Shown here piece after piece: positions 12,137 to 36,227 of a stretch of 64,000 nucleotides of DNA. Below the pieces are notes generated by a model, which saw nothing but the letters and a program-made list of their open reading frames with translations, made no database searches and had not been told where the DNA came from. The DNA is taken from assembly GCF_013315695.1 (NCBI RefSeq), contig NZ_CP054353.1, one strand, 5' to 3'. The stretch comes from Escherichia coli. Lineage in GTDB: Bacteria > Pseudomonadota > Gammaproteobacteria > Enterobacterales > Enterobacteriaceae. Made by a program: the position numbers and the translations under genes. Positions within the stretch are counted from its first letter, which is position 1; each line of letters begins with the position of its first letter.

Positions 12137-12137
12137 T

Positions 12138-12160: not shown

Positions 12161-12173
12161 TTCAGGAGGTATC

Positions 12174-13131: not shown

Positions 13132-13133
13132 TC

Positions 13134-14831: not shown

Positions 14832-15142
14832 TGGTCGATATTACCCGGGTACGCCGCGAATCCCTGCGCTGGAGTCTGCTGGTTGCCCTGAACAAAACCC
14901 GCCCTTACACCGCCAGCGAAACGTTGCTGCTGGACGTGTCCCGCGCCATCTACCCGGACACCACGCAACTGGAGCTGCGCCGGGAGCTTGATTATCTGGC
15001 AGATCGCAAAATGGTGGAGCTGGAGAAGAGACCGTCCGGTGACTGGTTTGCCGATCTGAGTCGCCTTGGTGTGGATATTGTGGAATACACCGTGGAATGC
15101 GGCCCGGGTATTGCCCGACCGGAAAAATACTGGAGTGAGTGA
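14831..15142 (+). CDS. Hypothetical protein (Mu gp26-position)
   Basis: 103 aa ORF, translationally coupled to neighbours. Confidence 0.45.
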   Translation: MVDITRVRRESLRWSLLVALNKTRPYTASETLLLDVSRAIYPDTTQLELRRELDYLADRKMVELEKRPSGDWFADLSRLGVDIVEYTVECGPGIARPEKYWSE

Positions 15143-19502: not shown

Positions 19503-19504
19503 CA

Positions 19505-19963
19505 ATGGCTTCCGATAACCTGGTCAGTATCACCATTAACGATAAATCCCTGCGCCGGAGCCTCCGTGCGCTGGATCTTGCTGCCACAGACCTGGAGCCC
19601 GCGATGCGCAAAATCGCCGGAACCCTGCTGGCGGAAACACAGTTTAACTTTCTTGATGAGGGGCGTCCGGGGTGGATCCCCTCGCTGGCAGCGGAAGAAC
19701 GTGACGGGCAGACACTGCAGGATACCGGGCGTCTGATGGGGTCAGTATCAACCGACCATGACGACCGGCAGGCTGTTGTGGGGACCAACGTTGTTTACGG
19801 TGCCATTCACCAGTTCGGGGGTAAAACGGGGCGTAATGAGTCTGTTGAACTTCCGGCCCGCCCGTTCCTGCCGGTGACGGGGGATGGAGAACTACAGCCT
19901 GAAGTGGTAATCCCCATCCTCGATACCATTGTCCGCCATCTTGAATCAGCGGCCCGTCGCTGA
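19505..19963 (+). CDS. Virion morphogenesis protein (Mu G-like)
   Basis: 152 aa ORF following the F-like gene. Confidence 0.6.
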   Translation: MASDNLVSITINDKSLRRSLRALDLAATDLEPAMRKIAGTLLAETQFNFLDEGRPGWIPSLAAEERDGQTLQDTGRLMGSVSTDHDDRQAVVGTNVVYGAIHQFGGKTGRNESVELPARPFLPVTGDGELQPEVVIPILDTIVRHLESAARR

Positions 19964-20177
19964 GTTTTCTCTCTTCAGGCGGGTGATTTATCATTGCCAG
20001 CGAATGAGGGGCTGTATTACCTTTATAAAGGCTTTACAGCCTCTGTTTTATAACCGCCTCCGGTTCACCGCATTGCTTTCCCTGTCCTTCTCCCCTGATG
20101 TTTTCTAAAGCAGATTAAAATCGCCGGGCCTGCATTTCTCACAAACTGTCTCCGACAACATAACGCGGGACAGCAAA

Positions 20178-21293
20178 ATGTCAGCCATTCACATTTTTAA
20201 AGCCGGTACTCATACCGATATGCACGGCAAAAAACTGCCGTTCACGCCAGACGATCTTGCCGCCTGCGTGAAAGCCTATGACCCGTCCGTCCATGAAGCA
20301 CCACTCGTGATTGGTCATCCCAGAACGGAAGACCCGGCGTGGGGCTGGGTGAAAGCCCTGTCGCTCAGCGGCGTCGATCTGATGGCAGAGCCTGCCCAGC
20401 TGGACCCGCAGTTTGCTGAGATGGTCACCGACGGACGATTCAAAAAAGTGTCCGCCTCTTTCTACCTCCCGGATTCACCGTCCAATCCGAAGCCCGGCGT
20501 GCTCTACCTTCGCCATGTGGGCTTTCTCGGGGCACAGCCACCTTCCGTCAAGGGGCTGAAACAGGTGTCCTTCAGTGAGCAGGAAGAAGGTGTGGTGGAG
20601 TTCGCCGACTGGCAGGCCATCACGAATGCCTCCCTGTGGGGAAAGCTGCGCGATTTTCTGATCGCCCGCTTCAGTCTGGACGAGGCAGAAAAAGTCCTGC
20701 CGGAATGGCAGCTCAACAGTCTGCGCGAAGAGGCGTACCGCGACACACTGTCGCAGGATGCAGCAGGTGCACAATTCAGTGAGACAGGCCCGGGGCCGTC
20801 TTCCGCAAGTAACGAGGAATCATCGATGACAAAAGAAGAGATTGAAGCCCTTCAGGAGGAGAACCGCCGCTTGAAGCAGCAGGCTGCTGATCGCGATGCG
20901 CGTGATGCACAGGTCAGACAGGAGCAACTGCATAAGGACAATGTGGCCTTTGCAGAAAAACTGGTCGCAGAGGGCCGTCTGGCTCCCCGCGCCTCCTCCG
21001 TGGTGGTTGCCCTGCTGGATGCCGTCGCCGGTGGCGACAAGCCGGTGGAGTTTGCTGAGGGGGAAAGCCGCACACCGCTGGCCACCGCCTTTCGTTCATT
21101 GCTCTCCGACGGGGAGCCGGTGATGAATTTCGCCGAACAGGCCACAAAAGAGCGTGTCGGCGACACGGTGAAGGTGGATGTGGCAGAGTTTGCGGAAGCC
21201 GATCCTGAGCGTCTGGCCCTGCATCAGAAAGCAGTGGCCCTGTCCAAAAAAGAAGGCATCAGCTATGAGGCTGCTGTCGCACGCTGCCTGTAA
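20178..21293 (+). CDS. Head protease / scaffold protein (Mu I-like)
   Basis: 371 aa immediately upstream of the major capsid gene; acidic coiled-coil C-terminal half typical of scaffolds. Confidence 0.65.
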   Translation: MSAIHIFKAGTHTDMHGKKLPFTPDDLAACVKAYDPSVHEAPLVIGHPRTEDPAWGWVKALSLSGVDLMAEPAQLDPQFAEMVTDGRFKKVSASFYLPDSPSNPKPGVLYLRHVGFLGAQPPSVKGLKQVSFSEQEEGVVEFADWQAITNASLWGKLRDFLIARFSLDEAEKVLPEWQLNSLREEAYRDTLSQDAAGAQFSETGPGPSSASNEESSMTKEEIEALQEENRRLKQQAADRDARDAQVRQEQLHKDNVAFAEKLVAEGRLAPRASSVVVALLDAVAGGDKPVEFAEGESRTPLATAFRSLLSDGEPVMNFAEQATKERVGDTVKVDVAEFAEADPERLALHQKAVALSKKEGISYEAAVARCL

Positions 21294-21307
21294 TTTAAGG
21301 AGAGAGC

Positions 21308-22261
21308 ATGTCTGATTACTTAAAAGGTAAACGTGTCGTTGATCCGGTACTGACCAGTATCGCCCGTGGCTATAAAAATGCCGCATTCATCGGCGAACGT
21401 ATTTTCCCCGTCGTGCTGACGGACAAGGAAGGCGTGCGTGTACCGACCTTCGGGAAAACCGCCTTTGTGGAATATGACACCGAGCGTGCCGTCGGGGCGG
21501 ACAGCAATGTTCTGGTCCGTGAAAAAACAGGCACGCTGGACCTGGTGCTGGGTGAACACGATCTGGCTGCGCCGGTGGACTATCGCGAGCAGGCGGAGTC
21601 CATGTTTAACGAAGAGAGCAAGGCCATCCGTCGCGCCACGAATGGCGTGAACCTGCGCCGTGAACTTATCGCTGCCCGTCTGGCTCAGGATGAAAAGGTC
21701 TACCGTACCGGGCACGTCAAAAAACTGACAGCCAGTGATCGCTGGGCCGGTGGTAAGGGGGACCCCATCGGGGTGATTGAAGCCGGTATGGAAGCGGTCC
21801 GTACGGCCACGGGGCTGCGTCCTAACCTGATGACCATGGGGGCCGGCGTGATGGCGCTGCTGAAGTTCCACCCGGCGATTCAGGCCGCCATCGGAGCCAA
21901 CGAACGCAAGCGCATCACCACAGAAATCCTGCAGGACCTCTTTCAGATCGAAGAGATCGTCATCGGTGCCCCAGTCTCCCTGCCGTCCATGAAAGCGGCA
22001 ATGGATAAGAACAGCGTGCCGGCGGATATCTGGGGAGACAATCTGATGCTGCACTATGTCGGCAAACCGCAGCCGGGGGCGGACAGCGCGGACGAGAACG
22101 AGCCGTCCTTCGGCTACACCCTGCGTCGTAAGGGGATGCCTGTTGCCGACAAATACGACGGAGCCGGTGGCAAGGTGAAGTACTGCCGTTATACCGATAT
22201 CTACAAAGTCGCCGTGGTTGGTGGCGATGCCGGGTATCTCATTACCGGTATCAGTAAATAA
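21308..22261 (+). CDS. Major capsid protein (Mu T-like)
   Basis: 317 aa with strong RBS (aggagag) after the protease/scaffold gene. Confidence 0.8.
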   Translation: MSDYLKGKRVVDPVLTSIARGYKNAAFIGERIFPVVLTDKEGVRVPTFGKTAFVEYDTERAVGADSNVLVREKTGTLDLVLGEHDLAAPVDYREQAESMFNEESKAIRRATNGVNLRRELIAARLAQDEKVYRTGHVKKLTASDRWAGGKGDPIGVIEAGMEAVRTATGLRPNLMTMGAGVMALLKFHPAIQAAIGANERKRITTEILQDLFQIEEIVIGAPVSLPSMKAAMDKNSVPADIWGDNLMLHYVGKPQPGADSADENEPSFGYTLRRKGMPVADKYDGAGGKVKYCRYTDIYKVAVVGGDAGYLITGISK

Positions 22262-22270
22262 GGAGGCGTT

Positions 22271-22609
22271 ATGGGAACCACTCAGCAGGTCATTCTGATC
22301 ACAACCGTAACGGCAGGGGCAGCACTGGCACAGCAGCGTTTTGTCGGGGCAGATAATACCCCCTGTAAAGCCGGTGCCGCAGCGCTCGGGGTTGCCGAAG
22401 TGGATGCTGTTACCGGCGACAGCACGCCGGTGAGCGTTCTGGGCATTATTGCTGTCGAGGCCGGGGCCGCTGTCAGCCGTGGTGTGGCTGTTCAGTCAGA
22501 TGCTCAGGCCAGAGCCGTGCCGCAGTCCGGCGACGGTAAATCCTGTGGTATTGCACTTGATGAAGCCGGGGGTGAAGGCGACGTCATTCGTATCCTGCGC
22601 GGGGTGTGA
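22271..22609 (+). CDS. Hypothetical head-associated protein
   Basis: 112 aa Ala/Gly/Val-rich ORF downstream of the major capsid gene. Confidence 0.45.
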   Translation: MGTTQQVILITTVTAGAALAQQRFVGADNTPCKAGAAALGVAEVDAVTGDSTPVSVLGIIAVEAGAAVSRGVAVQSDAQARAVPQSGDGKSCGIALDEAGGEGDVIRILRGV

Positions 22610-22610
22610 C

Positions 22611-23057
22611 ATGTACTGCACCCTGGAGGATTTGCTTGCGCAGGTGCCGGAGCGGACGCTTATCGAGCTCACCAGTGAAGAGATGGACTTCGACTCACCT
22701 GCAACAGTGAATACCCGTGTGGTGGACAGCTGTATCCGCTATGCCGACGAGCTGATTGATGCCCATCTGCGCGGACGCTATATCCTGCCACTGGCAGAGA
22801 TACCGACTGTTCTGCGGGACATTGCCATCACGCTGGTCCGTTACCGGCTCTACGCCCGCCGCCCGGAAGGTGACCTCCCGGATACGGTGAAGGATGACCA
22901 CAAAGAAGCGCTGCGGCAACTCAGGGAGTTACGTGATAACAGGCTCACGCTGGGGCTGCCGTCCACTCAGAAAGATGTGCCTGAGCCTGGCGAGTTTCGT
23001 GTACGCAGTCGCCCGGCTACTTTCGGCGGTCGTGACGGTTTACTGGAGAAATACTGA
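22611..23057 (+). CDS. Head completion / connector-like protein (Mu gp36-position)
   Basis: ATG at 22611 directly after the preceding stop; track ORF 22449..23057 extends upstream in the same frame. Confidence 0.55.
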   Translation: MYCTLEDLLAQVPERTLIELTSEEMDFDSPATVNTRVVDSCIRYADELIDAHLRGRYILPLAEIPTVLRDIAITLVRYRLYARRPEGDLPDTVKDDHKEALRQLRELRDNRLTLGLPSTQKDVPEPGEFRVRSRPATFGGRDGLLEKY

Positions 23058-23521
23058 TGAACGTTCTGCCCGTCCTTGATGCGGTACTGGCCCGGTTACG
23101 CGAGAAGCTGCCGCAACTGCAGGTGGAGTACTTCCCGGAGAAACCGGCTGAATATCGCCTGAACCATCCGGTTGGCGCGTTGCTGTTGAGCTATGCCGGT
23201 TCGCGCTTTGACAGGCCGGATGATACCGGTGCAGTGATCCAGTCTCAGACTATCCAGCTCTGCGTCACGGTGGTCTTCCGCCAGCTCAACGGTAAAAAAG
23301 GGGCGATTAATGTCCTGGATGCTGTCCGCCGCATTCTCGGTGGCCACACCCCGCCCGGCTGCCGCCGCCGTATCTGGCTGACCCGCGAGGTGTTTATCGG
23401 TGAAGTCAGGGGGCTGTGGCAGTACGCCCTCGACTTCGCGACTGAAAGCGTCTTTATCGAAGACAGCGATTTACCGTCCGGCCCGCTGTTAACCGAAGTG
23501 AACTATGAGGAAAGCGAGTGA
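23057..23521 (+). CDS. Hypothetical tail-completion protein (Mu gp37-position)
   Basis: 154 aa, start overlaps the previous stop. Confidence 0.5.
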   Translation: MNVLPVLDAVLARLREKLPQLQVEYFPEKPAEYRLNHPVGALLLSYAGSRFDRPDDTGAVIQSQTIQLCVTVVFRQLNGKKGAINVLDAVRRILGGHTPPGCRRRIWLTREVFIGEVRGLWQYALDFATESVFIEDSDLPSGPLLTEVNYEESE

Positions 23522-23772
23522 TGAAAGAATACCGCTATTCCGGCCCGGCCAGCGGCGTCACGCTGTCGGACGGAACCGAAATCCTGCTCTGGCCGGGGAA
23601 GACGGTTTCCCTGCCGGAGGAGCATGACTACGTGAAGGTACTGGTGGCGCTGAAACATCTGACGCCGGTACCTGAAGAGACTAAACCCGCCGGCACACCG
23701 GCTGTGCAGTCACCAAAGCGCAGAAGCAGCAGTGACAGCGAAGTGAAAACGGAGGACACCCATGGCAGCTAA
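23518..23772 (+). CDS. Hypothetical protein (Mu gp38-position)
   Basis: 84 aa, coupled between neighbouring genes. Confidence 0.45.
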   Translation: MMKEYRYSGPASGVTLSDGTEILLWPGKTVSLPEEHDYVKVLVALKHLTPVPEETKPAGTPAVQSPKRRSSSDSEVKTEDTHGS

Positions 23773-25189
23773 CTATCTGCATGGTCCCGAAACCATTGAG
23801 GTGGAAAACGGTGCCCGCCCGGTTAAAACGGTGAAATCTGCCGTTATTGGCCTGATTGGTACCGCCCCGATGGGGGATGTCAATACGCTGGTACAGTGCC
23901 TGTCTGAGAAAGACGCAGCGGCATTTGGCAGCCAGTTCACCGGCTTTACCATTCCGCAGGCGCTGGATGCGATTTATGACCATGGTGCAGGTATCGTTCT
24001 GGTCATTAACGTCCTCGACCCGGCGAAACATAAAACGGCGATCGAGGATGAGGTGGTTACCTTTGACAAATCGACAGGGCAGGCCAGACTGGCGCATCCG
24101 GTTGTCGCTAATGTGGTGGTGAAAAACAGTGAAGGCAGCACCTCCCACACGGCGAACACGGACTACCGTGTTGATGCGCAGGCGGGTGTGCTCACGAACC
24201 TGGGCAAGGCTATTGAGGCCGGTGGCAGCGTGAAGGTGAGCTATGAGTACGCGGACCCGTCGAAGGTGACTGCGGCGGACATCATCGGCGGGGTGAACAG
24301 CGCCGGAAACCGAACCGGCATGAAGCTGCTTAACGACAGCTTCAACCTGTACGGCTATTTCGCCAAAATTCTGATTGCGCCGGTGTTCTGCACCCAGAAG
24401 AGTGTCGCAGTTGAGCTTATCGCCATGGCAGAGAAGCTGGGCGCGGTAACCTACATTGATGCGCCTGTCGGTACCACCTTTGCACAGGCTCTGGCAGGTC
24501 GTGGCCCGGAAGGCACCATCAACTTCAATACCAGCTCCGACCGCGTCCGTCTGTGCTATCCGCATGTGAAGGTATATGACCCGGTGACAAACACAGAGCG
24601 TCTGGAGCCGCTCAGCCAGCGTGCAGCAGGTCTGCGTGCCAGAGTCGATCTGGACAAGGGCTACTGGTGGTCATCCTCCAATCAGGAGATTCTGGGGATC
24701 ACTGGCGTGGAGCGCCAGCTGTCCGCGATGATTGATGACCCGCAGAGTGAGGTGAACCTGCTTAACGAACAGGGGATCACCACGGTATTCAGCAGTTACG
24801 GCAGCGGCCTTCGTCTGTGGGGTAACCGGACGGCAGCATGGCCAACGGTCACCCATATGCGTAACTTTGAGAACGTTCGCCGCACCGGTGATGTGATCAA
24901 CGAGTCCATTCGTTATTTCAGCCAGCAGTACATCGACATGCCGATTACTCAGGCGCTGATTGATGCACTGACGGAGTCGGTCAACGCCTACGGTCGCAAA
25001 ATGACTGGTGATGGTGCGGTACTGGGCTTCCGTTGCTGGTTTGATCCGGCCCGCAATCCGGAGACGGAGCTGGCCGCCGGGCACCTGTTGCTGAGCTACA
25101 AATATACGCCACCACCGCCGCTGGAGCGACTGACGTTTGAGACTGAGATCACCTCGGAATACCTGTTAACCCTGAAAGGGGGCAACTGA
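23762..25189 (+). CDS. Tail sheath protein (Mu L-like)
   Basis: 475 aa immediately followed by the tail tube gene. Confidence 0.8.
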   Translation: MAANYLHGPETIEVENGARPVKTVKSAVIGLIGTAPMGDVNTLVQCLSEKDAAAFGSQFTGFTIPQALDAIYDHGAGIVLVINVLDPAKHKTAIEDEVVTFDKSTGQARLAHPVVANVVVKNSEGSTSHTANTDYRVDAQAGVLTNLGKAIEAGGSVKVSYEYADPSKVTAADIIGGVNSAGNRTGMKLLNDSFNLYGYFAKILIAPVFCTQKSVAVELIAMAEKLGAVTYIDAPVGTTFAQALAGRGPEGTINFNTSSDRVRLCYPHVKVYDPVTNTERLEPLSQRAAGLRARVDLDKGYWWSSSNQEILGITGVERQLSAMIDDPQSEVNLLNEQGITTVFSSYGSGLRLWGNRTAAWPTVTHMRNFENVRRTGDVINESIRYFSQQYIDMPITQALIDALTESVNAYGRKMTGDGAVLGFRCWFDPARNPETELAAGHLLLSYKYTPPPPLERLTFETEITSEYLLTLKGGN

Positions 25190-25710
25190 TGTCAAAGATT
25201 GAGATAAACCGCATCACGAATGCCAACATCTATCTGGATGGTACTAACCTGCTGGGACGGGCTGAGGAAGTTAAACTCCCCGATGTCTCCATGATTATGC
25301 AGGAACACAAGGCGCTGGGGATGGTGGGTAAGGTGGAACTCCCGGCTGGTTTTGACAAACTGGAAGGCGAAATCAAATGGAACAGCTTTTACCGCGATGC
25401 GATGCTGTCTGCCGCGAACCCGTACAGGTCGCTGGCACTGCAGTGTCGTTCCAGCGTCCAGCGCTACAGCTCGCAGGGGCTGATTGACGAAATCCCGCTG
25501 GTCACCTTCCTGACGATTATGTTCAAGAAGAACCCGCTGGGGACGTTCAAACAGCACGAGAACGCCGAGTTCTCCAGTAGCTTCACCTGCACGTATATCA
25601 GACAGGTACTGGATGGTGAAGAGCTGCTGCAACTGGACTATCTGGCCAACATCTTCCGGGTCGGCGGTGTTGATCAACTGACTGACTACCGTATCAATAT
25701 CGGGGGCTGA
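25189..25710 (+). CDS. Tail tube protein (Mu M-like)
   Basis: 173 aa between sheath and chaperone/tape-measure genes. Confidence 0.75.
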   Translation: MSKIEINRITNANIYLDGTNLLGRAEEVKLPDVSMIMQEHKALGMVGKVELPAGFDKLEGEIKWNSFYRDAMLSAANPYRSLALQCRSSVQRYSSQGLIDEIPLVTFLTIMFKKNPLGTFKQHENAEFSSSFTCTYIRQVLDGEELLQLDYLANIFRVGGVDQLTDYRINIGG

Positions 25711-25712
25711 CG

Positions 25713-25994
25713 GTGAGTGTTGAACTGACGGATAAAGGAGGACGATGTGCGGCACTGGGCATGTCAAATGGTACGTGGTTTACCCTCCTTGATATTCCGG
25801 GGGTGGAAACCCTTTTTAATACCCGTAAAACCAATGACCCGATTGACTGCACACGTTCAAAGGCCCGCAAACTGGCGGATTTGATTGAAGCATGGGAGCC
25901 TCCCGACCACTGGTTCTCCGGCATCGGCAAATCTGAGGGAAAGACGCTTCTCATCGCTTTCCTGCGTAACTGCAAGGGGTTTCGCACTTGCTGA
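25713..25994 (+). CDS. Hypothetical protein, uncertain
   Basis: 93 aa track ORF between tube and chaperone genes; no motif. Confidence 0.3.
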   Translation: MSVELTDKGGRCAALGMSNGTWFTLLDIPGVETLFNTRKTNDPIDCTRSKARKLADLIEAWEPPDHWFSGIGKSEGKTLLIAFLRNCKGFRTC

Positions 25995-26091
25995 CATCAC
26001 AGGGGCTCCGGCCCCTTCTTCTTAATCTCCTTTAATATCCGTCACGCGCTTCTCCCGACATACTGCCCTGAACTTACACAGGAGCACAATC

Positions 26092-26427
26092 ATGTCACAG
26101 ACCCCATCCGATACTTTTAAATTGTCTTATCCCTTCACCACTGCTGCAGGCACCAGAATTGAGCTGGTTGAACTGAAACGCCTGACGGTAAAAGACCTGA
26201 AGCAGGTGCGCAAAATCAGCAAAAACCCGGCAGACTGGGACGAACCGCTGATTGCCCGCAGTACTGGTCTTCTCCCGGAAGATCTCGACAATATGGATCT
26301 GGCTGATTACCTGCAGTTACAGAAACGATTTCAGCTCATCACGGGGATGGGTGAGAGCAACCAGGGCGCTGACGCAGGCGCAGGGGCTGCTGGCGAGATG
26401 GTTCCGGTTTCAGCCGGGGGAGATTGA
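26092..26427 (+). CDS. Tail assembly chaperone
   Basis: 111 aa immediately upstream of the tape measure gene; overlapped by a second frame (26252..26509). Confidence 0.55.
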   Translation: MSQTPSDTFKLSYPFTTAAGTRIELVELKRLTVKDLKQVRKISKNPADWDEPLIARSTGLLPEDLDNMDLADYLQLQKRFQLITGMGESNQGADAGAGAAGEMVPVSAGGD

Positions 26428-26509
26428 TGCCCTCGATACTGACGATCTGGAGATGTGGCTGGAGCAGGCTGAAGAGCAAATAAAAAGCGAGTACGGCGAC
26501 AAATCATAG
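26252..26509 (+). CDS. Overlapping frame, possible frameshift extension of the tail assembly chaperone
   Basis: +1 frame relative to 26092..26427; its C-terminal part (..DALDTDDLEMWLEQAEEQIKSEYGD) looks protein-like; G5 run at 26416..26420 near the upstream stop. Confidence 0.4.
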   Translation: MPAVLVFSRKISTIWIWLITCSYRNDFSSSRGWVRATRALTQAQGLLARWFRFQPGEIDALDTDDLEMWLEQAEEQIKSEYGDKS

Positions 26510-26584
26510 TACAGACAGCCGCCAGTAGCGGCTGTTCTGCGTTATTCCCTCACGTCTTTTCACCTTCCCCGGAGGTTAACCACT

Positions 26585-29536
26585 ATGTCGGGACAGTTTT
26601 CAGTCGGCGTTGTTATCGGCGGGATGATTGGCAGCACATTCCGTTCTGCAATGAGCGGTACCCGCCGTGCGCTTGATTCCCTGAGCGATACCTCACGCCG
26701 CCTGCAGGAACGTCAGAACGCTTTAACCCGTGCAACAGAACGTTATGGTCAACTGGGTTCTTCCCGGATGCAGCATCTCAACAGCGAGCTGCTGCGGGTA
26801 AGCCGCACCATGGAGCAAATTGAGCGCCAGCAGCGCCGTCTGTCAGCGGCATCCGCTACCAGTGATGCGCTGAAAGCTAACCGCATGGCGCTGTATGGTC
26901 AGGGGATTGAAGCGTATGGCATGGCACAGACTGTTTATCATACGGTTTCCCCTGCCGTTCAGCAGTCCATGTCTTTTCAGGACAAAATGATTGATATGTC
27001 GATCACCGCAAAATATGACAATAAAACGCGGGATGCACTTGCCGGACAGATAAAAGGCTGGGCGCTTAAATACAATCAGTATCAGGATGAGCTGCAGGAG
27101 GCGGTGGGTTCACTCATCAGCGACAATATTGATAATGTGTCAGATATCGGTTTTCTGATGCCGGATATTGCCCGCGCGGCAACGGCAACACGCACGTCTG
27201 CTCAGGACTGGGCAAAAGTGGCCGCAGTCTGGCAAAACTCCCTGAAAGGTGCGGCCAGAGATTTTGGTGCCGTTCAGAATATTATGGCTTATGCCGGTGA
27301 CCAGGGGTCATTTGAAATCCCGGATCAGGTCAAGTGGATGCAGTCCCTGGCCCCAATGATGGCGGGTATTGCCAGTGGAAAAGAGGCTGTTGCTGAAATC
27401 GGGGCCAGTCTCCAGATAGCAAAAATCGGTGCAGGTTCCACCGACGAAGCAGCTAATAATTTTAAAAACTTTCTTACCAAAATTTTTGCCCGCGATACTC
27501 AGAAACAGTTTGCTGATCTGGGTATTGATTTGCAGGGATCTATTGCGAGTTATAAAGCTGCGGGGATCTCTCCGATTGAAGGGATGTTGAGTGTTATAGA
27601 ACGTTACCTCAATGCCAAAAGCCCCGAAGCGCTGGCCGGCTTCAAATCAGCCATGAAAATAAAGAATGATACGGCAAGAGATGAGGCACTTCAGGCTCTG
27701 GCGAAAAACTTTGGTCTGGGCGATATGTTCGCGGATATGCAGGTCATGGCATTTATCCGCCCGATGCTGGCCAACATGGACAGATATCGAGAGATCCGTG
27801 CCGGTGCTCTCAGGGCTGCGGATAACGATTTGCTTGCCAGTGCTTATGATCAGCGGCTGAAATCTCCCCTTGAAGCCACTAAAACACTTATGGTCAGCAG
27901 TCGCGATCTGGCAATTACGCTGGGCGATCAATTAGCTCCATCTTTTATTTCTTTGACTCAGGAACTGCTTCCACTCATTCAGGGGGCAAAACACTGGGTA
28001 GCGACTCACCCGCAATTTGTCAGTGGGGCTTTTAAGCTCATCAGTGCGCTCCTTGCGATTAAGATAGCGACTGTTGGTCTCAAACTGGGGCTGAATCTCC
28101 TTATTTCCCCCTTTGTAAGTGTCTGGAAAAATGCTGTTTTACTTCGGGCCAACTGGCTTCGTCTGTCGCTCGCACTGGGGCAAGGCGGTAAGCTCCGCTG
28201 GCTGGTGACCGGATTTAGCGCCGTCGCCAGAGGAGCCAGAACACTGAGTGGCGTGCTCTCCGGGGGGCTGGTTCGCGGAATTATGCTCGCCGGACGTGCT
28301 GTTCTCTGGATTGGACGTGCGCTGATGATGAATCCCATCGGTCTCGTTATCACCGCTGTCGCGGCAGCAGCTTACCTTATCTACCGCAACTGGGGGGCAG
28401 TCAGTGGCTGGTTTAAACAGCGCTGGGCAGACATTCAGGAAGCCTTTAACGGCGGCATTGTGGGAATTGGTAAGTTACTGATTAACTGGTCGCCGGCAGG
28501 CCTGCTCTATAAAGCCTTTGCGGCTGCGCTGAAATATTTCGGCGTTGCTCTGCCGGCAAAGTTCACCGACTTCGGTGGCCATCTTATCGACGGTCTGATT
28601 AACGGTATCAAAAACAAATGGGGGTCGCTCAAATCCAGTGTAACCGGAATGGGTGACAGCATCAGTAGCTGGTTTAAACAGTGCTGGGCTGACATTCAGG
28701 AAGCCTTTAACGGCGGTATCGCGGGAACTGGTAAGCTGCTGATTAACTGGTCGCCGGCAGGTCTGCTCTATAAAGCCTTTGCAGCTGCGCTGAAATATCT
28801 TGGTGTTGATCTGCCGGCAAAGTTCACCGACTTCGGTGGCCATCTTGTCGACGGTCTGATTAACGGTATCAAAAACAAATGGGAGTCGCTCAAATCCAGT
28901 GTAACCGGAATGGGTGACAGCATCAGTGGCTGGTTCAGCGAAAAGCTGGGCATTCATTCGCCGAGCCGCGTGTTTATGGGCTTTGGTGACAATATCGCGC
29001 AGGGGGCCGCCATTGGCCTGCAGCGGACCACTCCGCTTGCAGCTCTGGCCGGGCAGCGAATGGCCAGTGAACTGCTCCCCAAAATGCCCGTGAGCATTCA
29101 GGGGCCAGAAATACGGGATAACACTTCAGGTGTTCGCTTCAGTATGCCGTTGCCCGATATCAATGGGTTTATGTCGTCTGCTAAAAATGCGATCGGAGCC
29201 GTAATCAATAGTTTGTCTTCCATGCCCGCTATCCCGCTCTCCACCCGGGCATCGATTTTACCAGGGCAACGTCTGGCAAATGAGATGACACCGGATGTTC
29301 CCCGTATCCCCTCGCCTGAAATCATGGCTGCCGGATATTCAGGCCGTGGTGCAGCTGCAACCGGCGGTGGAACGTCTGGTGGTATCCAGGTCAGCTTTAA
29401 TCCTCAGTTTTTCCTCAATGGCAGGGAAACCACAGCGCCTGCAGGACTGACTGGTGCCCTGAATATGAGTCTGCATGAGCTGGAAAAAATGCTGGAGCGT
29501 CTGCTGGCTCAGAAACAACGTAAGGAGTACCGCTGA
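26585..29536 (+). CDS. Tail tape measure protein
   Basis: 983 aa, largest tail ORF, after the chaperone genes; contains internal tandem duplication and hydrophobic segments. Confidence 0.85.
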   Translation: MSGQFSVGVVIGGMIGSTFRSAMSGTRRALDSLSDTSRRLQERQNALTRATERYGQLGSSRMQHLNSELLRVSRTMEQIERQQRRLSAASATSDALKANRMALYGQGIEAYGMAQTVYHTVSPAVQQSMSFQDKMIDMSITAKYDNKTRDALAGQIKGWALKYNQYQDELQEAVGSLISDNIDNVSDIGFLMPDIARAATATRTSAQDWAKVAAVWQNSLKGAARDFGAVQNIMAYAGDQGSFEIPDQVKWMQSLAPMMAGIASGKEAVAEIGASLQIAKIGAGSTDEAANNFKNFLTKIFARDTQKQFADLGIDLQGSIASYKAAGISPIEGMLSVIERYLNAKSPEALAGFKSAMKIKNDTARDEALQALAKNFGLGDMFADMQVMAFIRPMLANMDRYREIRAGALRAADNDLLASAYDQRLKSPLEATKTLMVSSRDLAITLGDQLAPSFISLTQELLPLIQGAKHWVATHPQFVSGAFKLISALLAIKIATVGLKLGLNLLISPFVSVWKNAVLLRANWLRLSLALGQGGKLRWLVTGFSAVARGARTLSGVLSGGLVRGIMLAGRAVLWIGRALMMNPIGLVITAVAAAAYLIYRNWGAVSGWFKQRWADIQEAFNGGIVGIGKLLINWSPAGLLYKAFAAALKYFGVALPAKFTDFGGHLIDGLINGIKNKWGSLKSSVTGMGDSISSWFKQCWADIQEAFNGGIAGTGKLLINWSPAGLLYKAFAAALKYLGVDLPAKFTDFGGHLVDGLINGIKNKWESLKSSVTGMGDSISGWFSEKLGIHSPSRVFMGFGDNIAQGAAIGLQRTTPLAALAGQRMASELLPKMPVSIQGPEIRDNTSGVRFSMPLPDINGFMSSAKNAIGAVINSLSSMPAIPLSTRASILPGQRLANEMTPDVPRIPSPEIMAAGYSGRGAAATGGGTSGGIQVSFNPQFFLNGRETTAPAGLTGALNMSLHELEKMLERLLAQKQRKEYR
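28411..28932 (+). repeat. Two tandem copies of a 261-bp (87 aa) unit inside the tape measure gene
   Basis: GWFKQRWADIQEAFNGGI..KSSVTGMGDSIS repeated as SWFKQCWADIQEAFNGGI..KSSVTGMGDSIS; unit starts at 28411 and 28672, next at 28933. Confidence 0.8.
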
Positions 29537-30420
29537 TGTTTGCCGTACTGGGTGATATTGAGTTTGAGCTGATTACCTACTGGGACGGCTTCGAGGCCAC
29601 GTTCGGCGTCGATTATGCGGAGCATGCCCGCATCGGGGGTAAGCCTGGCCTGCAGTTCGTCGGCGACAGGCTGGACGAAATCCAGATAACTCTGGTTTTC
29701 CATCAGCATTATTGTGTACCCGATGTGGAGCTGGCGAGACTGCGAACAGCCATGAAAGCCCATCAGGCACTGGCGCTGGTCTTCGGCAACGGTGACTATC
29801 GCGGCTGGTTCGTGATTACCGATGTGACTGCAACCAGCGAGCAGACTGACAGTACCGGCAACGTGCTGGCTGTCAGTGCCACCGTGTCTCTCCGGGAATA
29901 CACCGGTGACCCGAAAAATCCTCTGCAACCACCGGCAATACGCACGAAGCTCCCGGGTGTCGGGGCGGTCTCCGGTGCCATTCCTTCGCCTTCAGGGGTG
30001 GCGCAGTTCATCCGCAACGGCGTCAACTATGCGAAACAGGCGCAGTCTGTACTCCAGACCACTATCAGCGCCGTTCGGGTGACACAGAAAATGAAGGATA
30101 ACCCCGTTGTCGCACTGACCCGTGTGCCGGGGCTGATGAGCGGACTGGGTAATATCTCCGGGGCTCTGGGGAAAAGTGTTCCGGCGTTTAACGCACTCTC
30201 TGAATCCATGCCCGATGCCATCAGTCTGGCCAGAACAGCCAGCGAAGCAGCCACGTATGTACAGCAGGCACAGTCTGCGCTGAGTGGTGTGGACAAAAGA
30301 AATATTGCAGGTGCTCTGGATACCGTTTCCGGGCAGCTTAACGCCGCCGGCACAGCATTCAACCGCATGTCTCCGGGATTAAGTGCAATGGCCACCAGAA
30401 TACTGACGAGGAGTGTGTGA
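29536..30420 (+). CDS. DNA circularisation protein (Mu N-like)
   Basis: 294 aa directly after the tape measure gene, as in Mu. Confidence 0.65.
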   Translation: MFAVLGDIEFELITYWDGFEATFGVDYAEHARIGGKPGLQFVGDRLDEIQITLVFHQHYCVPDVELARLRTAMKAHQALALVFGNGDYRGWFVITDVTATSEQTDSTGNVLAVSATVSLREYTGDPKNPLQPPAIRTKLPGVGAVSGAIPSPSGVAQFIRNGVNYAKQAQSVLQTTISAVRVTQKMKDNPVVALTRVPGLMSGLGNISGALGKSVPAFNALSESMPDAISLARTASEAATYVQQAQSALSGVDKRNIAGALDTVSGQLNAAGTAFNRMSPGLSAMATRILTRSV

Positions 30421-30632
30421 TGTTTCTTGAACATATTACCCGTGACGGAGAGCGCTGGGATTCGCTGGCATGGCAGTACTACGGTGACCCGCTGGGCTAT
30501 CCCCGGATTATTGCAGCCAATCCGCACGTGGCCATCACGCCGGTGCTGCCCTCCGGGTTGTTGTTACTGATCCCGGTTATTGAGGCTGAAGATGCCCGTA
30601 CAGAAGAGGATATTGCCCCATGGCTGAGATAA
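30417..30632 (+). CDS. Small tail protein, LysM-like (P2 X-like)
   Basis: 71 aa; N-terminal GERWDSLAWQYYGD resembles the LysM-type motif of P2 gpX-like tail proteins. Confidence 0.45.
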   Translation: MMFLEHITRDGERWDSLAWQYYGDPLGYPRIIAANPHVAITPVLPSGLLLLIPVIEAEDARTEEDIAPWLR

Positions 30633-31774
30633 ACAGTACTGCGCAAGCCACATCAGCGTTAACCGGCGTCAGCGATGTGCTGACGCCGGTATTCACTCTG
30701 TGGTATCTGCAGAAAAACATCACCTCTGATATCGCGCCTTATGTCACCCGTGTGGTCTGGAGCGATAACATCAAAAATGAGTCCGATACCATTGAGGTGG
30801 AGCTGGACGACACCGATGGCCGCTGGCTGGATAAGTGGTATCCGGGCAAGGGTGACACGCTGACGCTGAAAATGGGTTATCAGGGCGAGAAACTGCTGTC
30901 CTGCGGTACATTCTCAATAGACGAGATCGAAGTGAGTTCGCCCGCGTCCGTTGTCGCTATCCGTGGGGTGGCCACCTCGGTTAACAGTGCTCTGCGGACT
31001 AAATCCAGCCGTGGTTTTGAGAACACCACGCTGGCAGCTGTTGCGGGGCGGATTGCCAGAAAGCACCGGCTGAAACTGGTGGGCAGCATTGAGTCCATCA
31101 GAATCGACCGGGTGACCCAGTATGCTGAAACCGACGTGGGTTTTCTGCGCCGGCTGGCCAGCGAGTATGGTTATGCAGTGAAAGTGGTCAGTGACCAGCT
31201 GATTTTTTCTCATCTGGCCACACTGCGCAGTCAGGAGCCGGTCAGGCAGTTAAAACCGCAGGATGTGGCCCGCTTTTCCCTGCGTGACACCATCAACCGG
31301 GTCTATAAATCTGCAAAGGTAAAACACCAGAAAAGCAGCAGTAAAAAACTGATCGTCTACGAAGCTGATGGTGGTACCCGTGAAAGCGACAAAAAGCTCA
31401 AAGGTGGTAAGGTTACCAGCGCTGACTCACTTAAAGTTAACAGCCGCGTCAGCGACCCGGACAGTGCCCGGATTAAAGCGGATTCAGCACTGGCCAGACA
31501 TAACGAATACCAGCAGAACGGCTCCCTGACGCTGACGGGAACACCTCAACTGACAGCAGGCAACAAAATTGAACTGGTGGGTTTTGGGCAGTTATCCGGG
31601 CCATGGCTCATAACCACTGCCCGCCATGCGTTTGACCGTAACAGCGGCTACACCACAGAGCTGGAAGTGGCACGGGGGCCAGTCACAAGAGGGAAAAAAC
31701 AAAAAACTCAGAAACTCACGGTTTATCACCCGGATGGCAGTACATCGACGGTGATTAAGGAGAAGAAAAAATGA
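30620..31774 (+). CDS. Tail/baseplate hub protein (Mu P-like)
   Basis: 384 aa, position between the N-like and spike genes. Confidence 0.65.
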   Translation: MAEINSTAQATSALTGVSDVLTPVFTLWYLQKNITSDIAPYVTRVVWSDNIKNESDTIEVELDDTDGRWLDKWYPGKGDTLTLKMGYQGEKLLSCGTFSIDEIEVSSPASVVAIRGVATSVNSALRTKSSRGFENTTLAAVAGRIARKHRLKLVGSIESIRIDRVTQYAETDVGFLRRLASEYGYAVKVVSDQLIFSHLATLRSQEPVRQLKPQDVARFSLRDTINRVYKSAKVKHQKSSSKKLIVYEADGGTRESDKKLKGGKVTSADSLKVNSRVSDPDSARIKADSALARHNEYQQNGSLTLTGTPQLTAGNKIELVGFGQLSGPWLITTARHAFDRNSGYTTELEVARGPVTRGKKQKTQKLTVYHPDGSTSTVIKEKKK

Positions 31775-32367
31775 CTGGTGTCACTCGTCAGGTCGGTACG
31801 GTCAGTGCCGTTGATGCCGACAGGGTTCAGGCCCGCGTTCGTCTGCCTGAATGCGATAACCTGCGCACAAACTGGCTTAACGTGCTGCAGCGCAATATCC
31901 AGGATAACAAAGATTACTGGCTCCCTGACGTGGGGGAGCAGGTTGAGGTGCTGCTCGATGCCAACGGCGAGGATGGTGTTATTCTGGGCGCGGTGTATTC
32001 AGACGTCGATAAACCACCGTTCAGTGACAAAAATATCCGGGGAACCCGGTTTGCTGATGGTGCAGAGTACAGCTACAACCGGAAGACGCACACTCTGATC
32101 ATCCGGGGCGGCATTGAGCATATTGTCATTGAGTGTGGTGCTGATGTGGTATTGAAAACACAGAAAGCCACGATTGACGCACCGGAAACCGAACTTACCG
32201 GAGATCTGCGTGTCAGGGGTAAACTGATTTACGAAGGAGGCATGGCGGGTTCTGGTGGTGAAGGTGTTACCGCGACCATCCATGGCAATATCGAGATTAA
32301 AGGGAATGCCCATGCCACGGGCAGTATGTTGTCTGATGGCGAAAACTCCAGCCACCACTCCCACTGA
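31771..32367 (+). CDS. Baseplate central spike protein (gpV-like)
   Basis: 198 aa; Gly-rich C-terminus with HxH-type residues (NSSHHSH) as in spike tips; between hub and wedge genes. Confidence 0.65.
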   Translation: MTGVTRQVGTVSAVDADRVQARVRLPECDNLRTNWLNVLQRNIQDNKDYWLPDVGEQVEVLLDANGEDGVILGAVYSDVDKPPFSDKNIRGTRFADGAEYSYNRKTHTLIIRGGIEHIVIECGADVVLKTQKATIDAPETELTGDLRVRGKLIYEGGMAGSGGEGVTATIHGNIEIKGNAHATGSMLSDGENSSHHSH

Positions 32368-32421
32368 GCTTTTTAAACGCCTTTAATATCAGCGTTCCCG
32401 CACGGGGGCAATACTGCCCCC

Positions 32422-32769
32422 ATGAAAACAACCTCAGTATTCTGGCAACCAGCCCTGCAGGCTCCCGGCGAAATTGTCCGGGGGCTGGATGATATCCGGC
32501 AGGCGATTCAAATTATCCTGCGGACTCCCCGCGGCAGCGACCCGCATCGCCCGGAGTTCGGCAGCAATCTGCATCTTTATATCGACTGGCCTGTAGACCG
32601 GGCCATTCCGCATGTGGTGCGCGAATCCGTCGATGCCATCCGGCGCTGGGAGCCCCGCTGCCAGCTTATGTCAGTTAAACCCGCCGTCGACGGCGAACAT
32701 CTTACGCTCCGGGTGAGCTGGAAAGGCTCAGACGGACAGACCCGGACTCAGGAGCTGCTATGGCGCTGA
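32422..32769 (+). CDS. Baseplate wedge protein (gpW/gp25-like)
   Basis: 115 aa immediately upstream of the J-like baseplate gene. Confidence 0.6.
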   Translation: MKTTSVFWQPALQAPGEIVRGLDDIRQAIQIILRTPRGSDPHRPEFGSNLHLYIDWPVDRAIPHVVRESVDAIRRWEPRCQLMSVKPAVDGEHLTLRVSWKGSDGQTRTQELLWR

Positions 32770-33863
32770 CAGAACCCGATTTTATTGAACGCGATGCCGA
32801 CAAAATCACGGCAGAAATGATTGCGAAGTATGAAGCGGATACCGGCAAAACGCTGTACCCGGCACAGGCAGAACGTCTGCTGATTGATCTGTGGGCCTAT
32901 CGCGAAATGCTGGTCAGGGTTGCGGTACAGGAGGCAGCAAAGCAGAATCTGGTCGCCTTTGCCCGTGAGCCGATGATTGATTACCTCGGTGAACTGGTTG
33001 GTGTATACCGTCTTGCCGCGCAGCCTGCCACCACCACGCTCCAGTTCTCCGTAGATGAGGCACTGGCCATTGATGTGCTGATCCCGGCAGGCACCCGCGT
33101 CAGCGCTTCCGACAGCGTTATTTTTGCCACCGATACAGATGTGGTACTGAAGGCCGGATTGCTGCTGGTCAATGTCACGTCCACCTGTACCGAACCCGGT
33201 ACCGCTGGTAACGGCTGGCAACCTGCGCAGGTCAGTCAGTTACTCGATGAGATTGATAACGTCGACCTGCTGGTGAGCAATCTGACGGCCAGTTCCGGCG
33301 GTTCAGAACAGGAAGACGATGACAGGCTCCGGGAGCGTATCAGGCTGGCCCCGGAGTCATTCACCAATGCCGGAAGCCGTGGCGCATACCGCTTTCATGC
33401 CATGCAGGCCCATCCCAACATTGTCGATGTTGCTGTGCTTTCCCCGGTTCCCGGGACCGTAGATCTGTATCCGCTGCTCAGTACCGGTCTGCCGGACGGC
33501 GGTGTTCTCACGCTGGTAGAGAGTTTCTGCTCTGATGAGAAAGTCAGGCCACTCACTGATACAGTGCGGGCTAAAACACCAGTGAAGGTGGATTACACCA
33601 TTGAAGCCAGGATTACGATCTATCGTGATCAGGATGCCAGGTCTGTAAAAGATGCCGCTAACAGCGCCATACAGAACTGGGTGGCATCACGTGCCGCCAC
33701 GCTGGGGCGCGATATTGTCCCCAGCCAGATTATCAGTGCATTGTCCGTTTCCGGGGTGTACCCGGTTGAACTGGTGACACCGGCACTGCGGGTGGTGGCA
33801 GAAAACGAATGGGCAAACTGTACGGCAATCACTCTTAACATGACTGGAGTGTCTGATGACTGA
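32760..33863 (+). CDS. Baseplate wedge protein (gpJ-like)
   Basis: 367 aa in conserved W-J-I-fibre order. Confidence 0.7.
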   Translation: MALTEPDFIERDADKITAEMIAKYEADTGKTLYPAQAERLLIDLWAYREMLVRVAVQEAAKQNLVAFAREPMIDYLGELVGVYRLAAQPATTTLQFSVDEALAIDVLIPAGTRVSASDSVIFATDTDVVLKAGLLLVNVTSTCTEPGTAGNGWQPAQVSQLLDEIDNVDLLVSNLTASSGGSEQEDDDRLRERIRLAPESFTNAGSRGAYRFHAMQAHPNIVDVAVLSPVPGTVDLYPLLSTGLPDGGVLTLVESFCSDEKVRPLTDTVRAKTPVKVDYTIEARITIYRDQDARSVKDAANSAIQNWVASRAATLGRDIVPSQIISALSVSGVYPVELVTPALRVVAENEWANCTAITLNMTGVSDD

Positions 33864-34434
33864 GCCATTACAACTCCCGCCACCGCTTGAGGGTGATATC
33901 AGTCTCAGGACGCTGGGAAGACTGGCAGGACGGCTGGATAACATCGACCTGAGCGTACTGATGGTCTTTCTCGTCGATATCGTCGACAGTTCCGCGCTGC
34001 CATGGCTGGGCGAGCAGTTCTCACTGTCTGGCGATGGCTGGGAGCTGGCGGAATCGGACGATGTTCGCCGCATGCTTATAAAAGCAGCCATCGAACTGCA
34101 CCGGTATAAAGGGACGCCGTGGTCAATCCGGGAAGTTATCCGCCGTTTTGGCTTTGGTGAAGTGGATCTGATTGAAGGCACAGGTCGTCTCAGTTACGAC
34201 GGCAATCGCAGCTATAACGGACTGTTTGTTCATGGAGATGCAGCCGCCTGGGCAGTTTATCGCGTTATTCTGAAACAGCCCATTACTAACGATCAGGCCG
34301 CGATGCTGCGTCAGACGCTGGCTGCATTTGCACCGGCCCGCTGCCATCTGGCCAGCCTGGAGTATCAGTCTGTGGCCATTCGCTATAACAATACAGCCAT
34401 CCATGATGGCAGTTATAACCACGGGAGCAGTTGA
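33856..34434 (+). CDS. Baseplate protein (gpI-like)
   Basis: 192 aa immediately upstream of the tail fibre gene. Confidence 0.6.
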   Translation: MTEPLQLPPPLEGDISLRTLGRLAGRLDNIDLSVLMVFLVDIVDSSALPWLGEQFSLSGDGWELAESDDVRRMLIKAAIELHRYKGTPWSIREVIRRFGFGEVDLIEGTGRLSYDGNRSYNGLFVHGDAAAWAVYRVILKQPITNDQAAMLRQTLAAFAPARCHLASLEYQSVAIRYNNTAIHDGSYNHGSS

Positions 34435-36221
34435 TTATGGGAAACCTGAATGAAACAGAAAAGTGGGAAGAAAATATCTATCAACTGGAGACATCAGATC
34501 CGGTTCTGGGTGGTGCAGACGGGATATCAAATCGAGCCCCCCGGCAACTGGCAAACAGGACGAAATGGCTGAAGAAAAAAACGGAGGAAGCCGCACAGTC
34601 ACTGGCTGAACACGTACGTTCCCGTAACCACCCGGACGCGACACTGACAGCTAAGGGGTTCACCCAACTGAGCAGTGCCACCAACAGCACCTCTGAAACG
34701 CTGGCCGCCACACCAAAAGCCGTCAAGGCTGCATACGACCTTGCAGCCGGCAAGGCGCCCGTCAGCCACACTCACCCGTGGAGTCAGATAACGGGAGTGC
34801 CTGCTGCCTCGCTGACGGCAAAAGGCACCGTACAATTGAGCAGTGCCATCAACAGCACGTCTGAAATACTGGCCGCCACACCGAAGGCGGTCAAGGCTGC
34901 ATACGACCTTGCAGCCGGCAAGGCGCCCGTCAGCCACACTCACCCGTGGAGTCAGATAACGGGAGTGCCTGCTGCCTCGCTGACGGCAAAAGGCACCGTA
35001 CAACTGAGCAGCGCCATCAACAGCACGTCTGAAACGCTGGCCGCCACACCGAAAGCGGTCAAGGCTGCATACGACCTGGCAGCCGGCAAGGCGCCTGCCA
35101 GCCACACTCACCCGTGGAGTCAGATAACGGGAGTGCCTGCGGCTTCACTGACGGCAAAAGGCACCGTACAACTGAGCAGCGCCACGGACAGTCAATCAGA
35201 AACTGAGGCTGCCACGCCGAAGGCGGTCAAGGCTGCATACGACCTTGCAGCCGGCAAGGCGCCCGTCAGCCACACTCACCCGTGGAGTCAGATAACGGGA
35301 GTGCCTGCTGCCTCGCTGACGGCAAAAGGCACCGTACAACTGAGCAGTGCCATCAACAGCACGTCTGAAATACTGGCCGCCACACCGAAAGCGGTCAAGG
35401 CTGCATACGATCTGGCAGCCGGCAAGGCGCCCGTCAGCCACACTCACCCGTGGAGTCAGATAACGGGAGTGCCTGCTGCCTCGCTGACGGCAAAAGGCAC
35501 CGTACAACTGAGCAGTGCCATCAACAGCACGTCTGAAATACTGGCCGCCACACCGAAAGCGGTCAAGGCTGCATACGATCTGGCAAACGGAAAACAACCG
35601 GCAGATGCCACGCTCACTGCTCTGGCAGGACTTGCCACTGCAGCAGATCGGTTGCCTTATTTTACCGGAGCAGACCGCGCAGCGCTGGCAACCCTTACAG
35701 CTATTGGTCGCGCTATTATCGCTAAGGGCAGTATAAAAGATGTCCTCAATTACCTTGGTTTGGGGGAAGGCTCTGCATTGCCTGTTGGTGTACCGGTTCC
35801 GTGGCCCACCGCCACACCGCCAGCAGGCTGGTTACAGTGCAACGGAGCTACGTTCACCAAAGAACAATATCCTGTTCTGGCCAGAGTCTACCCGACCCTC
35901 CGTCTTCCCGATTTACGCGGTGAGTTTATCCGTGGATGGGACGGTGGTCGCAAGGTTGATACCGGGCGTGCGCTACTTTCATTTCAGGAAGGGACTATCG
36001 TATCCGGTTTTGATGATAATGATACCGGAGATATCAGTTCGCTCGGCTCTACACAATACGGATTTGGTGACGCTTTAACCTCTAATCAACTGGGGGTCAT
36101 AAATGGCAAAAAGTGGATATTTGATGCATCCTCTAAAGGTGCACAAAGATATGACTGGTGGGCTTATGTATCAGCTCGCCCCCGCAATATCGCATTTAAC
36201 TATATCGTGAGGGCGGCGTGA
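34431..36221 (+). CDS. Tail fibre protein with six tandem repeats and an invertible C-terminal domain
   Basis: 596 aa; six 56-aa repeats (..TAKGTVQLSSAINSTSE.LAATPKAVKAAYDLAAGKAPVSHTHPWSQITGVPAAS..); C-terminal ~130 aa lie within the Gin-invertible segment. Confidence 0.8.
   Translation: MIMGNLNETEKWEENIYQLETSDPVLGGADGISNRAPRQLANRTKWLKKKTEEAAQSLAEHVRSRNHPDATLTAKGFTQLSSATNSTSETLAATPKAVKAAYDLAAGKAPVSHTHPWSQITGVPAASLTAKGTVQLSSAINSTSEILAATPKAVKAAYDLAAGKAPVSHTHPWSQITGVPAASLTAKGTVQLSSAINSTSETLAATPKAVKAAYDLAAGKAPASHTHPWSQITGVPAASLTAKGTVQLSSATDSQSETEAATPKAVKAAYDLAAGKAPVSHTHPWSQITGVPAASLTAKGTVQLSSAINSTSEILAATPKAVKAAYDLAAGKAPVSHTHPWSQITGVPAASLTAKGTVQLSSAINSTSEILAATPKAVKAAYDLANGKQPADATLTALAGLATAADRLPYFTGADRAALATLTAIGRAIIAKGSIKDVLNYLGLGEGSALPVGVPVPWPTATPPAGWLQCNGATFTKEQYPVLARVYPTLRLPDLRGEFIRGWDGGRKVDTGRALLSFQEGTIVSGFDDNDTGDISSLGSTQYGFGDALTSNQLGVINGKKWIFDASSKGAQRYDWWAYVSARPRNIAFNYIVRAA
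34644..35651 (+). repeat. Six tandem copies of a 168-bp in-frame repeat within the tail fibre gene
   Basis: Unit starts at 34644, 34812, 34980, 35148, 35316, 35484; near-identical units with a few substitutions. Confidence 0.85.
35755..35834. repeat. Left inverted repeat of the invertible tail-fibre segment (contains candidate recombination site)
   Basis: 80-bp sequence ttggtttgggggaaggctctgcattgcc...cagcaggctggtta is the reverse complement of 37280..37359. Confidence 0.8.
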
Positions 36222-36227
36222 TACCGT

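Follow-up and report, generated by a model that had tools for sequence, protein, structure and literature searches.

Does a tandem repeat inside the tail tape measure gene of an Escherichia coli prophage alter how long the phage's tail is, and how did it come about? The tape measure protein (TMP) of phages is a textbook molecular ruler, and nearly all of the direct evidence for this role was obtained with mutants engineered in a handful of phages, the majority of them siphophages. The 64,000-nucleotide (nt) stretch of E. coli DNA analysed here (contig NZ_CP054353.1 of assembly GCF_013315695.1, hereafter the window) contains a Mu-like prophage whose tape measure gene, an open reading frame (ORF) of 983 amino acids (aa) at 26585..29536 on the + strand, carries two adjacent copies of a 261-bp unit. 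We consider it likely that this array reflects the in-frame duplication of a helical module, that recombination between the copies has generated a series of alleles differing in the number of units, and that these units, through a ruler effect, influence tail length.

Tandem Repeats Finder detects one array between 24 and 34 kb of the window, at 28401..28935, with a period of 261 bp, 2.0 copies, 93% matches, 0% indels and a score of 951, a degree of similarity that is far beyond chance. The array is in frame within the ORF, where it spans 28406-28927 and comprises unit A (28406..28666, + strand, aa 608-694, GWFKQRW...DSIS) and unit B (28667..28927, + strand, aa 695-781, SWFKQCW...DSIS). The original prediction of a tandem duplication of 261 bp inside the tape measure gene, made up of two adjacent 87-aa units that each end in DSIS, is thus borne out; its coordinates, 28411-28932, describe the same array, but rotated by 5 nt relative to the in-frame units. 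The two units differ at 17 of 261 nt (93.5% nt identity, no indels), and 15 of these differences fall within the first 143 nt. At the protein level, 79 of the 87 residues are identical, and of the codons that differ, 8 do so nonsynonymously and 7 synonymously. ORFs on the minus strand within the repeat (e.g. 28475..28957) lie wholly inside the conserved coding gene and were duplicated along with it.

What had been taken for the start of a third unit downstream of unit B is just GWF, carried by a 13-nt microhomology, TCAGTGGCTGGTT, at 28923..28935 (+ strand), where the similarity stops. The same 13 nt (encoding ..S-GWF) form the left edge of the array at 28401..28413 (+ strand). Past 28927, similarity to the unit persists for only ~9 nt, and the sequence then becomes GWFSEKLGIHSPSRVF, a conserved motif located directly after the array (28928..28975, + strand, aa 782-797), in which the columns W, F, L, G, I, S, P, S and V are nearly invariant in an alignment of 37 homologues. 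Because a downstream GWF(S/K)EKLGIHSPS also follows the unit in single-copy alleles, this segment represents the ancestral flank and not a partial third copy, which is thereby ruled out. A hidden Markov model (HMM) search of the masked protein did not reveal other, degenerate copies of the unit in the rest of the TMP (E = 0.04, 0.8 bits), and a dot-plot of the TMP displays the offset-87 diagonal and a weak offset-71 signal, and nothing else.

The identity of the host gene as a tape measure gene, also part of the original prediction, is supported by several matches. The ORF matches PF10145 PhageMin_Tail over aa 159-340 (74 bits against a cut-off of 33.2), NCBIfam TIGR01760 tape_meas_TP901 over aa 119-493 (58.6 bits against a cut-off of 28.8) and PHROG 28 'tail length tape measure protein' (E = 8.5e-135), and the RefSeq annotation of a 100%-identical record agrees. 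Furthermore, the gene resides in a tail module with the P2-type order of sheath (PF04984), tube (PF04985), chaperone (PF10109), TMP, gpU (PF06995), gpX and gpD (PF05954), with the gpE-like chaperone gene and gpU as its direct neighbours.

The TMP region is carried by 633 of 5,426 complete E. coli genomes. As the summary counts of BLAST 'places' join the pieces inconsistently around repeats and are unfit for a census, copy number was read from the match span in two systematic samples of 60 drawn from the 633 carrier records. The first sample contained 42 two-copy, 12 three-copy, 5 one-copy alleles and 1 other, and the second 42, 13, 4 and 1, respectively. The sampled shares are therefore ~70% two-copy, ~21% three-copy and ~7% one-copy: the two-copy form is the modal allele in E. 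coli, and it is the one carried by the window. A comparison of TMP length among homologues, which had been suggested together with the original prediction, shows that they do not all have two copies, as one, two and three units correspond to proteins of 896 aa (strains ECKH-100, DLI.5a and EcPF7), 983 aa (the window, AF3, IAI39 and many strains labelled as sequence type 131, ST131) and 1070 aa (EC11, Eco889, 2016C-3878, ABU 83972 and CD306). The same three length classes are found in the protein database, with at least 42 protein clusters of 983 aa, one of which has 1,995 members. Within the dominant group, ~35 sampled genomes, many of them ST131-labelled, have the same two-copy allele with identical scores.

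A four-copy form of 1157 aa was absent from the top-scoring protein clusters, where such a form would score highest, and a four-copy query against the complete E. coli genomes retrieved three-copy alleles only (2 pieces, span 1098). The sole array with more than three copies, at 4817-6766 of the draft scaffold L022 (IMGVR_UViG_2740892433_000005), has an N at 5700, and in it 3.4 copies are followed by a restart at the left boundary and then by 4 copies. It may represent either an allele with four copies or a mis-join, and is unreliable since it straddles a scaffold gap.

The history of the array can be read from the 17 sites that distinguish A from B, which we polarised with ~35 single-copy units of diverged relatives (L005, L006, KP12, Phi06 and the IMG/VR loci L025-L082). 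These relatives share one ancestral pattern, which, written as A-type (a) or B-type (b) at successive sites, is roughly babbbaabbbabaabab. Unit A has derived states at nt 1, 24, 51, 54, 70, 72, 96, 133, 143 and 218, unit B has derived states at nt 16, 56, 62, 117, 138 and 181, and site 135 is ambiguous. As both units carry derived states, it is in the E. coli sublineage that the duplication arose. The synonymous divergence (dS) of A and B is 0.17, compared to 0.46-0.62 for either copy to the outgroup, and the ratio of nonsynonymous to synonymous divergence (dN/dS) between A and B is 0.24, indicating that both copies remain under purifying selection.

The unit of the closely related one-copy alleles (L002, L010, L020, L040 and L088) has the pattern aaaaaaaaaabbbbbbb: its first ten sites, through nt 96, are all A-type, and seven of these ten show A-derived states, and its last seven sites, starting at nt 117, are all B-type, among them the B-derived 117, 138 and 181. 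An allele that begins with derived states of A (nt 1-96) and ends with derived states of B (nt 117-181) is a recombinant product of contraction, and its candidacy as the ancestor is ruled out. In the three-copy alleles, the middle unit switches from B-type to A-type either after site 62 (bbbbbbbabaaaaaaaa, L003 and L021) or after site 1 (babaaaaabaaaaaaaa, L004, L011, L023, L086 and L087), and these two different switch points point to at least two independent expansions. The A/B hybrids of the one-copy class and the B/A hybrids of the three-copy class are, judging from their site patterns, the reciprocal products expected of unequal crossover in a two-copy parent. The protein signatures GRVIF|DVE and GRVIFAI|E in the wider set mark further one-copy breakpoints, and a B-type patch within copy A of the two-copy alleles L018, L019 and L024 is best read as gene conversion. 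The window had been proposed as a candidate tail-length variant: an in-frame duplication it is, but its allele is the common and apparently parental form, from which the one- and three-copy alleles derive.

All three classes are probably viable. The two-copy element of the window is inserted in dgcQ, three-copy elements are found adjacent to barA, in rstB and adjacent to ybaP, and one-copy elements lie adjacent to a symporter gene next to yidJ and adjacent to otsB. Furthermore, an identical tube protein, WP_162832341.1, accompanies TMPs with one, two and three copies. The occurrence of each class in different host genes in combination with the same tube protein argues for viability, and transposition into new sites in different strains suggests that phages of every class have gone through cycles of infection.

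Within the TMP, the module is preceded by two hydrophobic segments and followed by the conserved GIHSPSRVF motif. These hydrophobic segments (28013..28384, + strand, aa 477-513 and aa 572-600; 19-aa Kyte-Doolittle windows >1.5) are located just upstream of the array. An AlphaFold2 (AF2) model of aa 560-760 of the single-copy form, computed with the 37-sequence alignment, has a mean predicted local distance difference test (pLDDT) value of 77.8 and a predicted template modelling (pTM) score of 0.38. The modelled segment is predominantly α-helical, as expected for the TMP class, with predicted helices at segment positions 2-23, 25-42, 44-63, 66-75, 78-92, 100-142 and 147-187, and the second hydrophobic segment (aa 572-600) is predicted to be helical as well. 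The unit itself is predicted to form four helices that cover ~87% of its residues, with short Gly/Pro breaks between them.

In phage TP901-1, the tail's length varies linearly with that of the TMP, by ~0.15 nm per residue, as established with both deletions and duplications, and deletions in the repeat region and in a hydrophobic region outside the repeats both shorten the tail linearly (PMC5099701). Making the TMP longer or shorter likewise tunes the particle length of a contractile extracellular injection system (eCIS; bioRxiv 10.64898/2026.05.27.728243), and the transposable myophage KS10 has a TMP of 811 aa and a tail of ~140 nm (PMC2628397). If the rule of ~0.15 nm per residue applies, each 87-aa unit should add ~13 nm, and the predicted TMP and tail lengths are ~134, 147 and 160 nm for 896, 983 and 1070 aa, respectively. 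With a rise of ~4 nm assumed for a tube or sheath ring, one unit should correspond to ~3 rings, and the number of tube protein copies per virion would scale with TMP length.

Combining these observations, the following course of events appears likely. A single-copy ancestor would have duplicated the unit, most likely by slippage or illegitimate recombination between short repeats at its edges, as an imperfect direct repeat of ~13 nt (TCAGTrrCTGGTT, GWF motif) is present at both edges of the unit in the single-copy outgroups. The misaligned 261-bp copies would then have undergone unequal homologous recombination, giving rise to three-copy and one-copy alleles, and gene conversion would have produced mosaic copies. 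The one-, two- and three-copy forms all persist under purifying selection. With the TMP acting as a ruler in the lumen of the tube, each unit would lengthen the tail.

The module is also found in the wider TMP family. A full-library phmmer search with the 87-aa unit retrieved 582 representative clusters at E <= 1e-3, and copy numbers were determined for the 91 full-length proteins among the best 150 of these: 68 have one copy, 21 have two, one has three and one has four. In these distant TMPs, the NWSPLGLFYKAF module is thus duplicated in about a quarter of the full-length proteins (representative proteins P0122-P0184), with periods of 76 aa (14 cases), 83, 87, 105 and 113-114 aa and with 34-73% identity between copies. 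On the sequence evidence, these are older and independent events, and their recurrence shows that this stretch of the TMP repeatedly tolerates tandem duplication; the E. coli duplication is the youngest found. The TMPs of the IMG/VR loci L046-L065, L076 and L077 are ~55% identical overall to the window protein, and their unit is nonetheless at least 80% DNA-identical to unit A, which indicates that phages otherwise diverged share a mosaic C-terminal portion of this gene, module included. The locus L066, from another lineage, contains two units of ancestral type at 2650 and 3355, 705 bp (235 aa) apart, with no DNA tandem repeat detectable between them, and these units mark a separate event of larger size, either a duplication or an insertion, in the same region of the TMP.

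Several points limit this reading. The Gly+Pro content of the unit is 18%, and its four predicted helices are interrupted by breaks; at a pTM of 0.38, the helices may be arranged end to end, which would give the full 13 nm, or be folded back on each other, in which case the increment would be smaller. Among solved structures, no match to the unit was found by sequence or by fold. The viability of the copy classes is judged from the multiple insertion sites and not from plaques, and the copy-number census consists of samples and best-place-per-genome tables and not of a full count.

Alternatively, copy number might drift through recombination with no consequence for tail length, the module either folding back or lying outside the ruler, where the TMP would be buried in the baseplate or processed. 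The Gly/Pro-rich composition, the separation of the four helices and their uncertain packing would agree with such an array, as would the constancy of copy number in a large sampled clone, the ~35 genomes with identical two-copy alleles. We nevertheless regard it as rather unlikely, because the TP901-1 tail is shortened linearly by deletions in repeat and hydrophobic regions alike (PMC5099701), because the dN/dS value shows that both copies are constrained as protein, and because the independent duplication of the region in ~25% of the distant full-length relatives fits a tolerant and extensible segment of the ruler.

Copy number could also mainly tune, instead of or besides tail length, the reach or shape of a conduit that the TMP forms across the periplasm and inner membrane after ejection. 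The array directly follows two hydrophobic, membrane-like segments, and PMC5099701 describes TMPs as having a part in DNA transit. No sequence feature points specifically to a conduit, however, and such a function is compatible with a ruler effect; as the main role of the array we find it improbable. Equally doubtful is a more far-reaching extension of the ruler effect, namely that the series is a maintained tail-length polymorphism in which the lengths are favoured by the thickness of the host capsule or O-antigen and three copies represent a functional ceiling. In that case, the recombination-prone module would be a built-in length adjuster of this phage lineage and, more broadly, of the TMPs in which it was independently duplicated.

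That the array is a hypermutable contingency locus, switching tail length at high frequency within a clone, is very unlikely. Three length classes and clear recombinant products are what such a locus would generate, but all ~35 genomes sampled from the dominant group have the same two-copy allele, the distinct breakpoints observed are few, and the unit is a 261-bp sequence at 93.5% identity and not a simple-sequence tract. An assembly artefact, in which the repeat was expanded or collapsed by the assembler and for which the sequencing gap at the repeat in the TMP of the PhiKM GenBank record and the N at 5700 and impossible 3.4 + 4 copies of L022 could be cited, is ruled out by the 17 fixed differences between the copies, by the recurrence of the identical two-copy structure in hundreds of complete genomes from independent projects and by the numerous clusters of 983-aa proteins.

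The reading of the array as a recombining, length-setting module draws a parallel to known TMP variants. Engineered in-frame deletions and duplications were made in the lambda TMP gpH (Katsura and Hendrix 1984, as cited in PMC3271669) and in the TP901-1 TMP (Pedersen 2000; Mahony 2016, PMC5099701), and the E. coli alleles resemble these mutants in displaying an internal in-frame change of TMP length, which is proportional to tail length in the two model phages. Unlike these laboratory mutants of non-contractile siphophages, the 87-aa series is natural and common in E. coli, and it is hosted by a contractile phage of the Mu-like/P2-tail type. In contractile sheath-tube machines, length follows that of the helical region of the TMP in T4 (gp29, as cited in PMC5099701) and in the systems that employ Afp14 and AlgoCIS Alg14 (bioRxiv 10.64898/2026.05.27.728243), as learned with engineered constructs, whereas the E. 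coli series is natural.

Natural TMPs also contain 11-aa W/F repeats in variable numbers, 29 in TP901-1 (Belcaid, Bergeron and Poisson 2011, PMC3271669). They resemble the array described here in being tandem repeats whose number varies among related phages by duplication and loss. In contrast to them, the E. coli unit has 87 aa (261 bp), is present in only 1-3 copies and lacks an 11-residue aromatic periodicity (the spacings are 1, 4, 7, 14, 7, 3, 6, 1, 8, 3 and 16), and since its duplication is young (93.5% nt identity), individual crossover points are legible. The distant NWSPLGLFYKAF duplications concern a homologous module at the same position of the TMP, in 2 to 4 copies, but they are older and independent and have different boundaries and periods. 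No prior description of the 1/2/3-copy polymorphism was found in the literature searched, which contained only the general phenomenon. The internal duplication and loss of TMP segments is thus already known, and what is particular here is the large non-periodic module, the contractile Mu-like host, the commonness of the polymorphism and the legibility of the recombinants.

The alleles form an almost isogenic natural series, in which TMPs of 896, 983 and 1070 aa are combined with the same tube protein and with near-identical sheath and capsid. The phage is contractile and Mu-like, and clinical E. coli commonly carry it, ST131-labelled strains and ABU 83972 among them. Such a series would be well suited for a test of the ruler rule, of the number of nm per residue of a Gly/Pro-interrupted module and of ring quantisation. 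On a practical side, the repeat breaks short-read assemblies (the gap in PhiKM, L001, and the L022 scaffold) and misleads automatic annotation. The Prokaryotic Genome Annotation Pipeline (PGAP) presents the three-copy TMPs of Eco889 (L003, 703..3915) and CD306 (L087, 8980..12192) as two pseudogene fragments, and, when translated, the Eco889 ORF is intact, with 1070 aa and no stops.

The TMP contains a second length-variable segment of 71 aa (29051..29263, + strand, aa 823-893), as delineated by alignments. This block is bounded by GQR(M/L)A.E motifs, is present in the window, L002 and L005, and is missing from 821-aa alleles (L006, Klebsiella phage KP12 and Phi06_2974 B). Its weak internal similarity to the following segment (score 57 versus 27 +/- 5 for shuffles) suggests a duplication of older date or, alternatively, a deletion between short repeats.

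Upstream of the tape measure gene, the tail module encodes the contractile tail sheath protein (23762..25189, + strand, PF04984 and PF17482), the tail tube protein (25189..25710, + strand, PF04985, E = 2.9e-53) and the gpE-like tail assembly chaperone, the partner of the TMP (26092..26427, + strand, PF10109, E = 5.5e-21). The chaperone ORF is overlapped by an alternative-frame ORF ending at 26509, and the overlapping ORFs at 26092-26509 are probably the conserved E/E' frameshift pair that precedes the tape measure gene. In some related records, a 'GpE family' ORF is annotated separately and the chaperone appears as a pseudogene with an internal stop.

The module belongs to a BcepMu/Mu-like transposable prophage that occupies 586..38076 of the window and interrupts dgcQ (yedQ). 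On either side of the prophage lies ACTGGT (580-585 and 38077-38082), a direct repeat of 6 bp that constitutes a target-site duplication typical of transposition, and the prophage ends read TGATCAG... and ...GCGCATCA. Over the 1.6 kb compared (27900-29536), the window and E. coli AF3 (NZ_OZ547117.1) share 100% identity. The annotation of AF3 describes the element as a Mu-like prophage containing Mor, Gam, transposase, a DUF935 portal and Mu-type head genes. Among isolated phages, Escherichia phage PhiKM (Bcepmuvirus) is the closest. An invertible tail-fibre region resembling the Mu G segment spans 34437-37998, with the fibre and assembly genes on the + strand, an alternative 'phage tail protein' at 36893..37354 on the − strand and a Gin-like recombinase at 37426..37998. 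In the related prophages of CD306 and EcPF7, the fibre segment is inverted relative to the window, and the fibre C-termini differ. Outside the prophage, an IS1A at 41668-42466 adjoins a truncated fliR, and the source strain appears to have a deletion that removes part of the flagellar fli operon.

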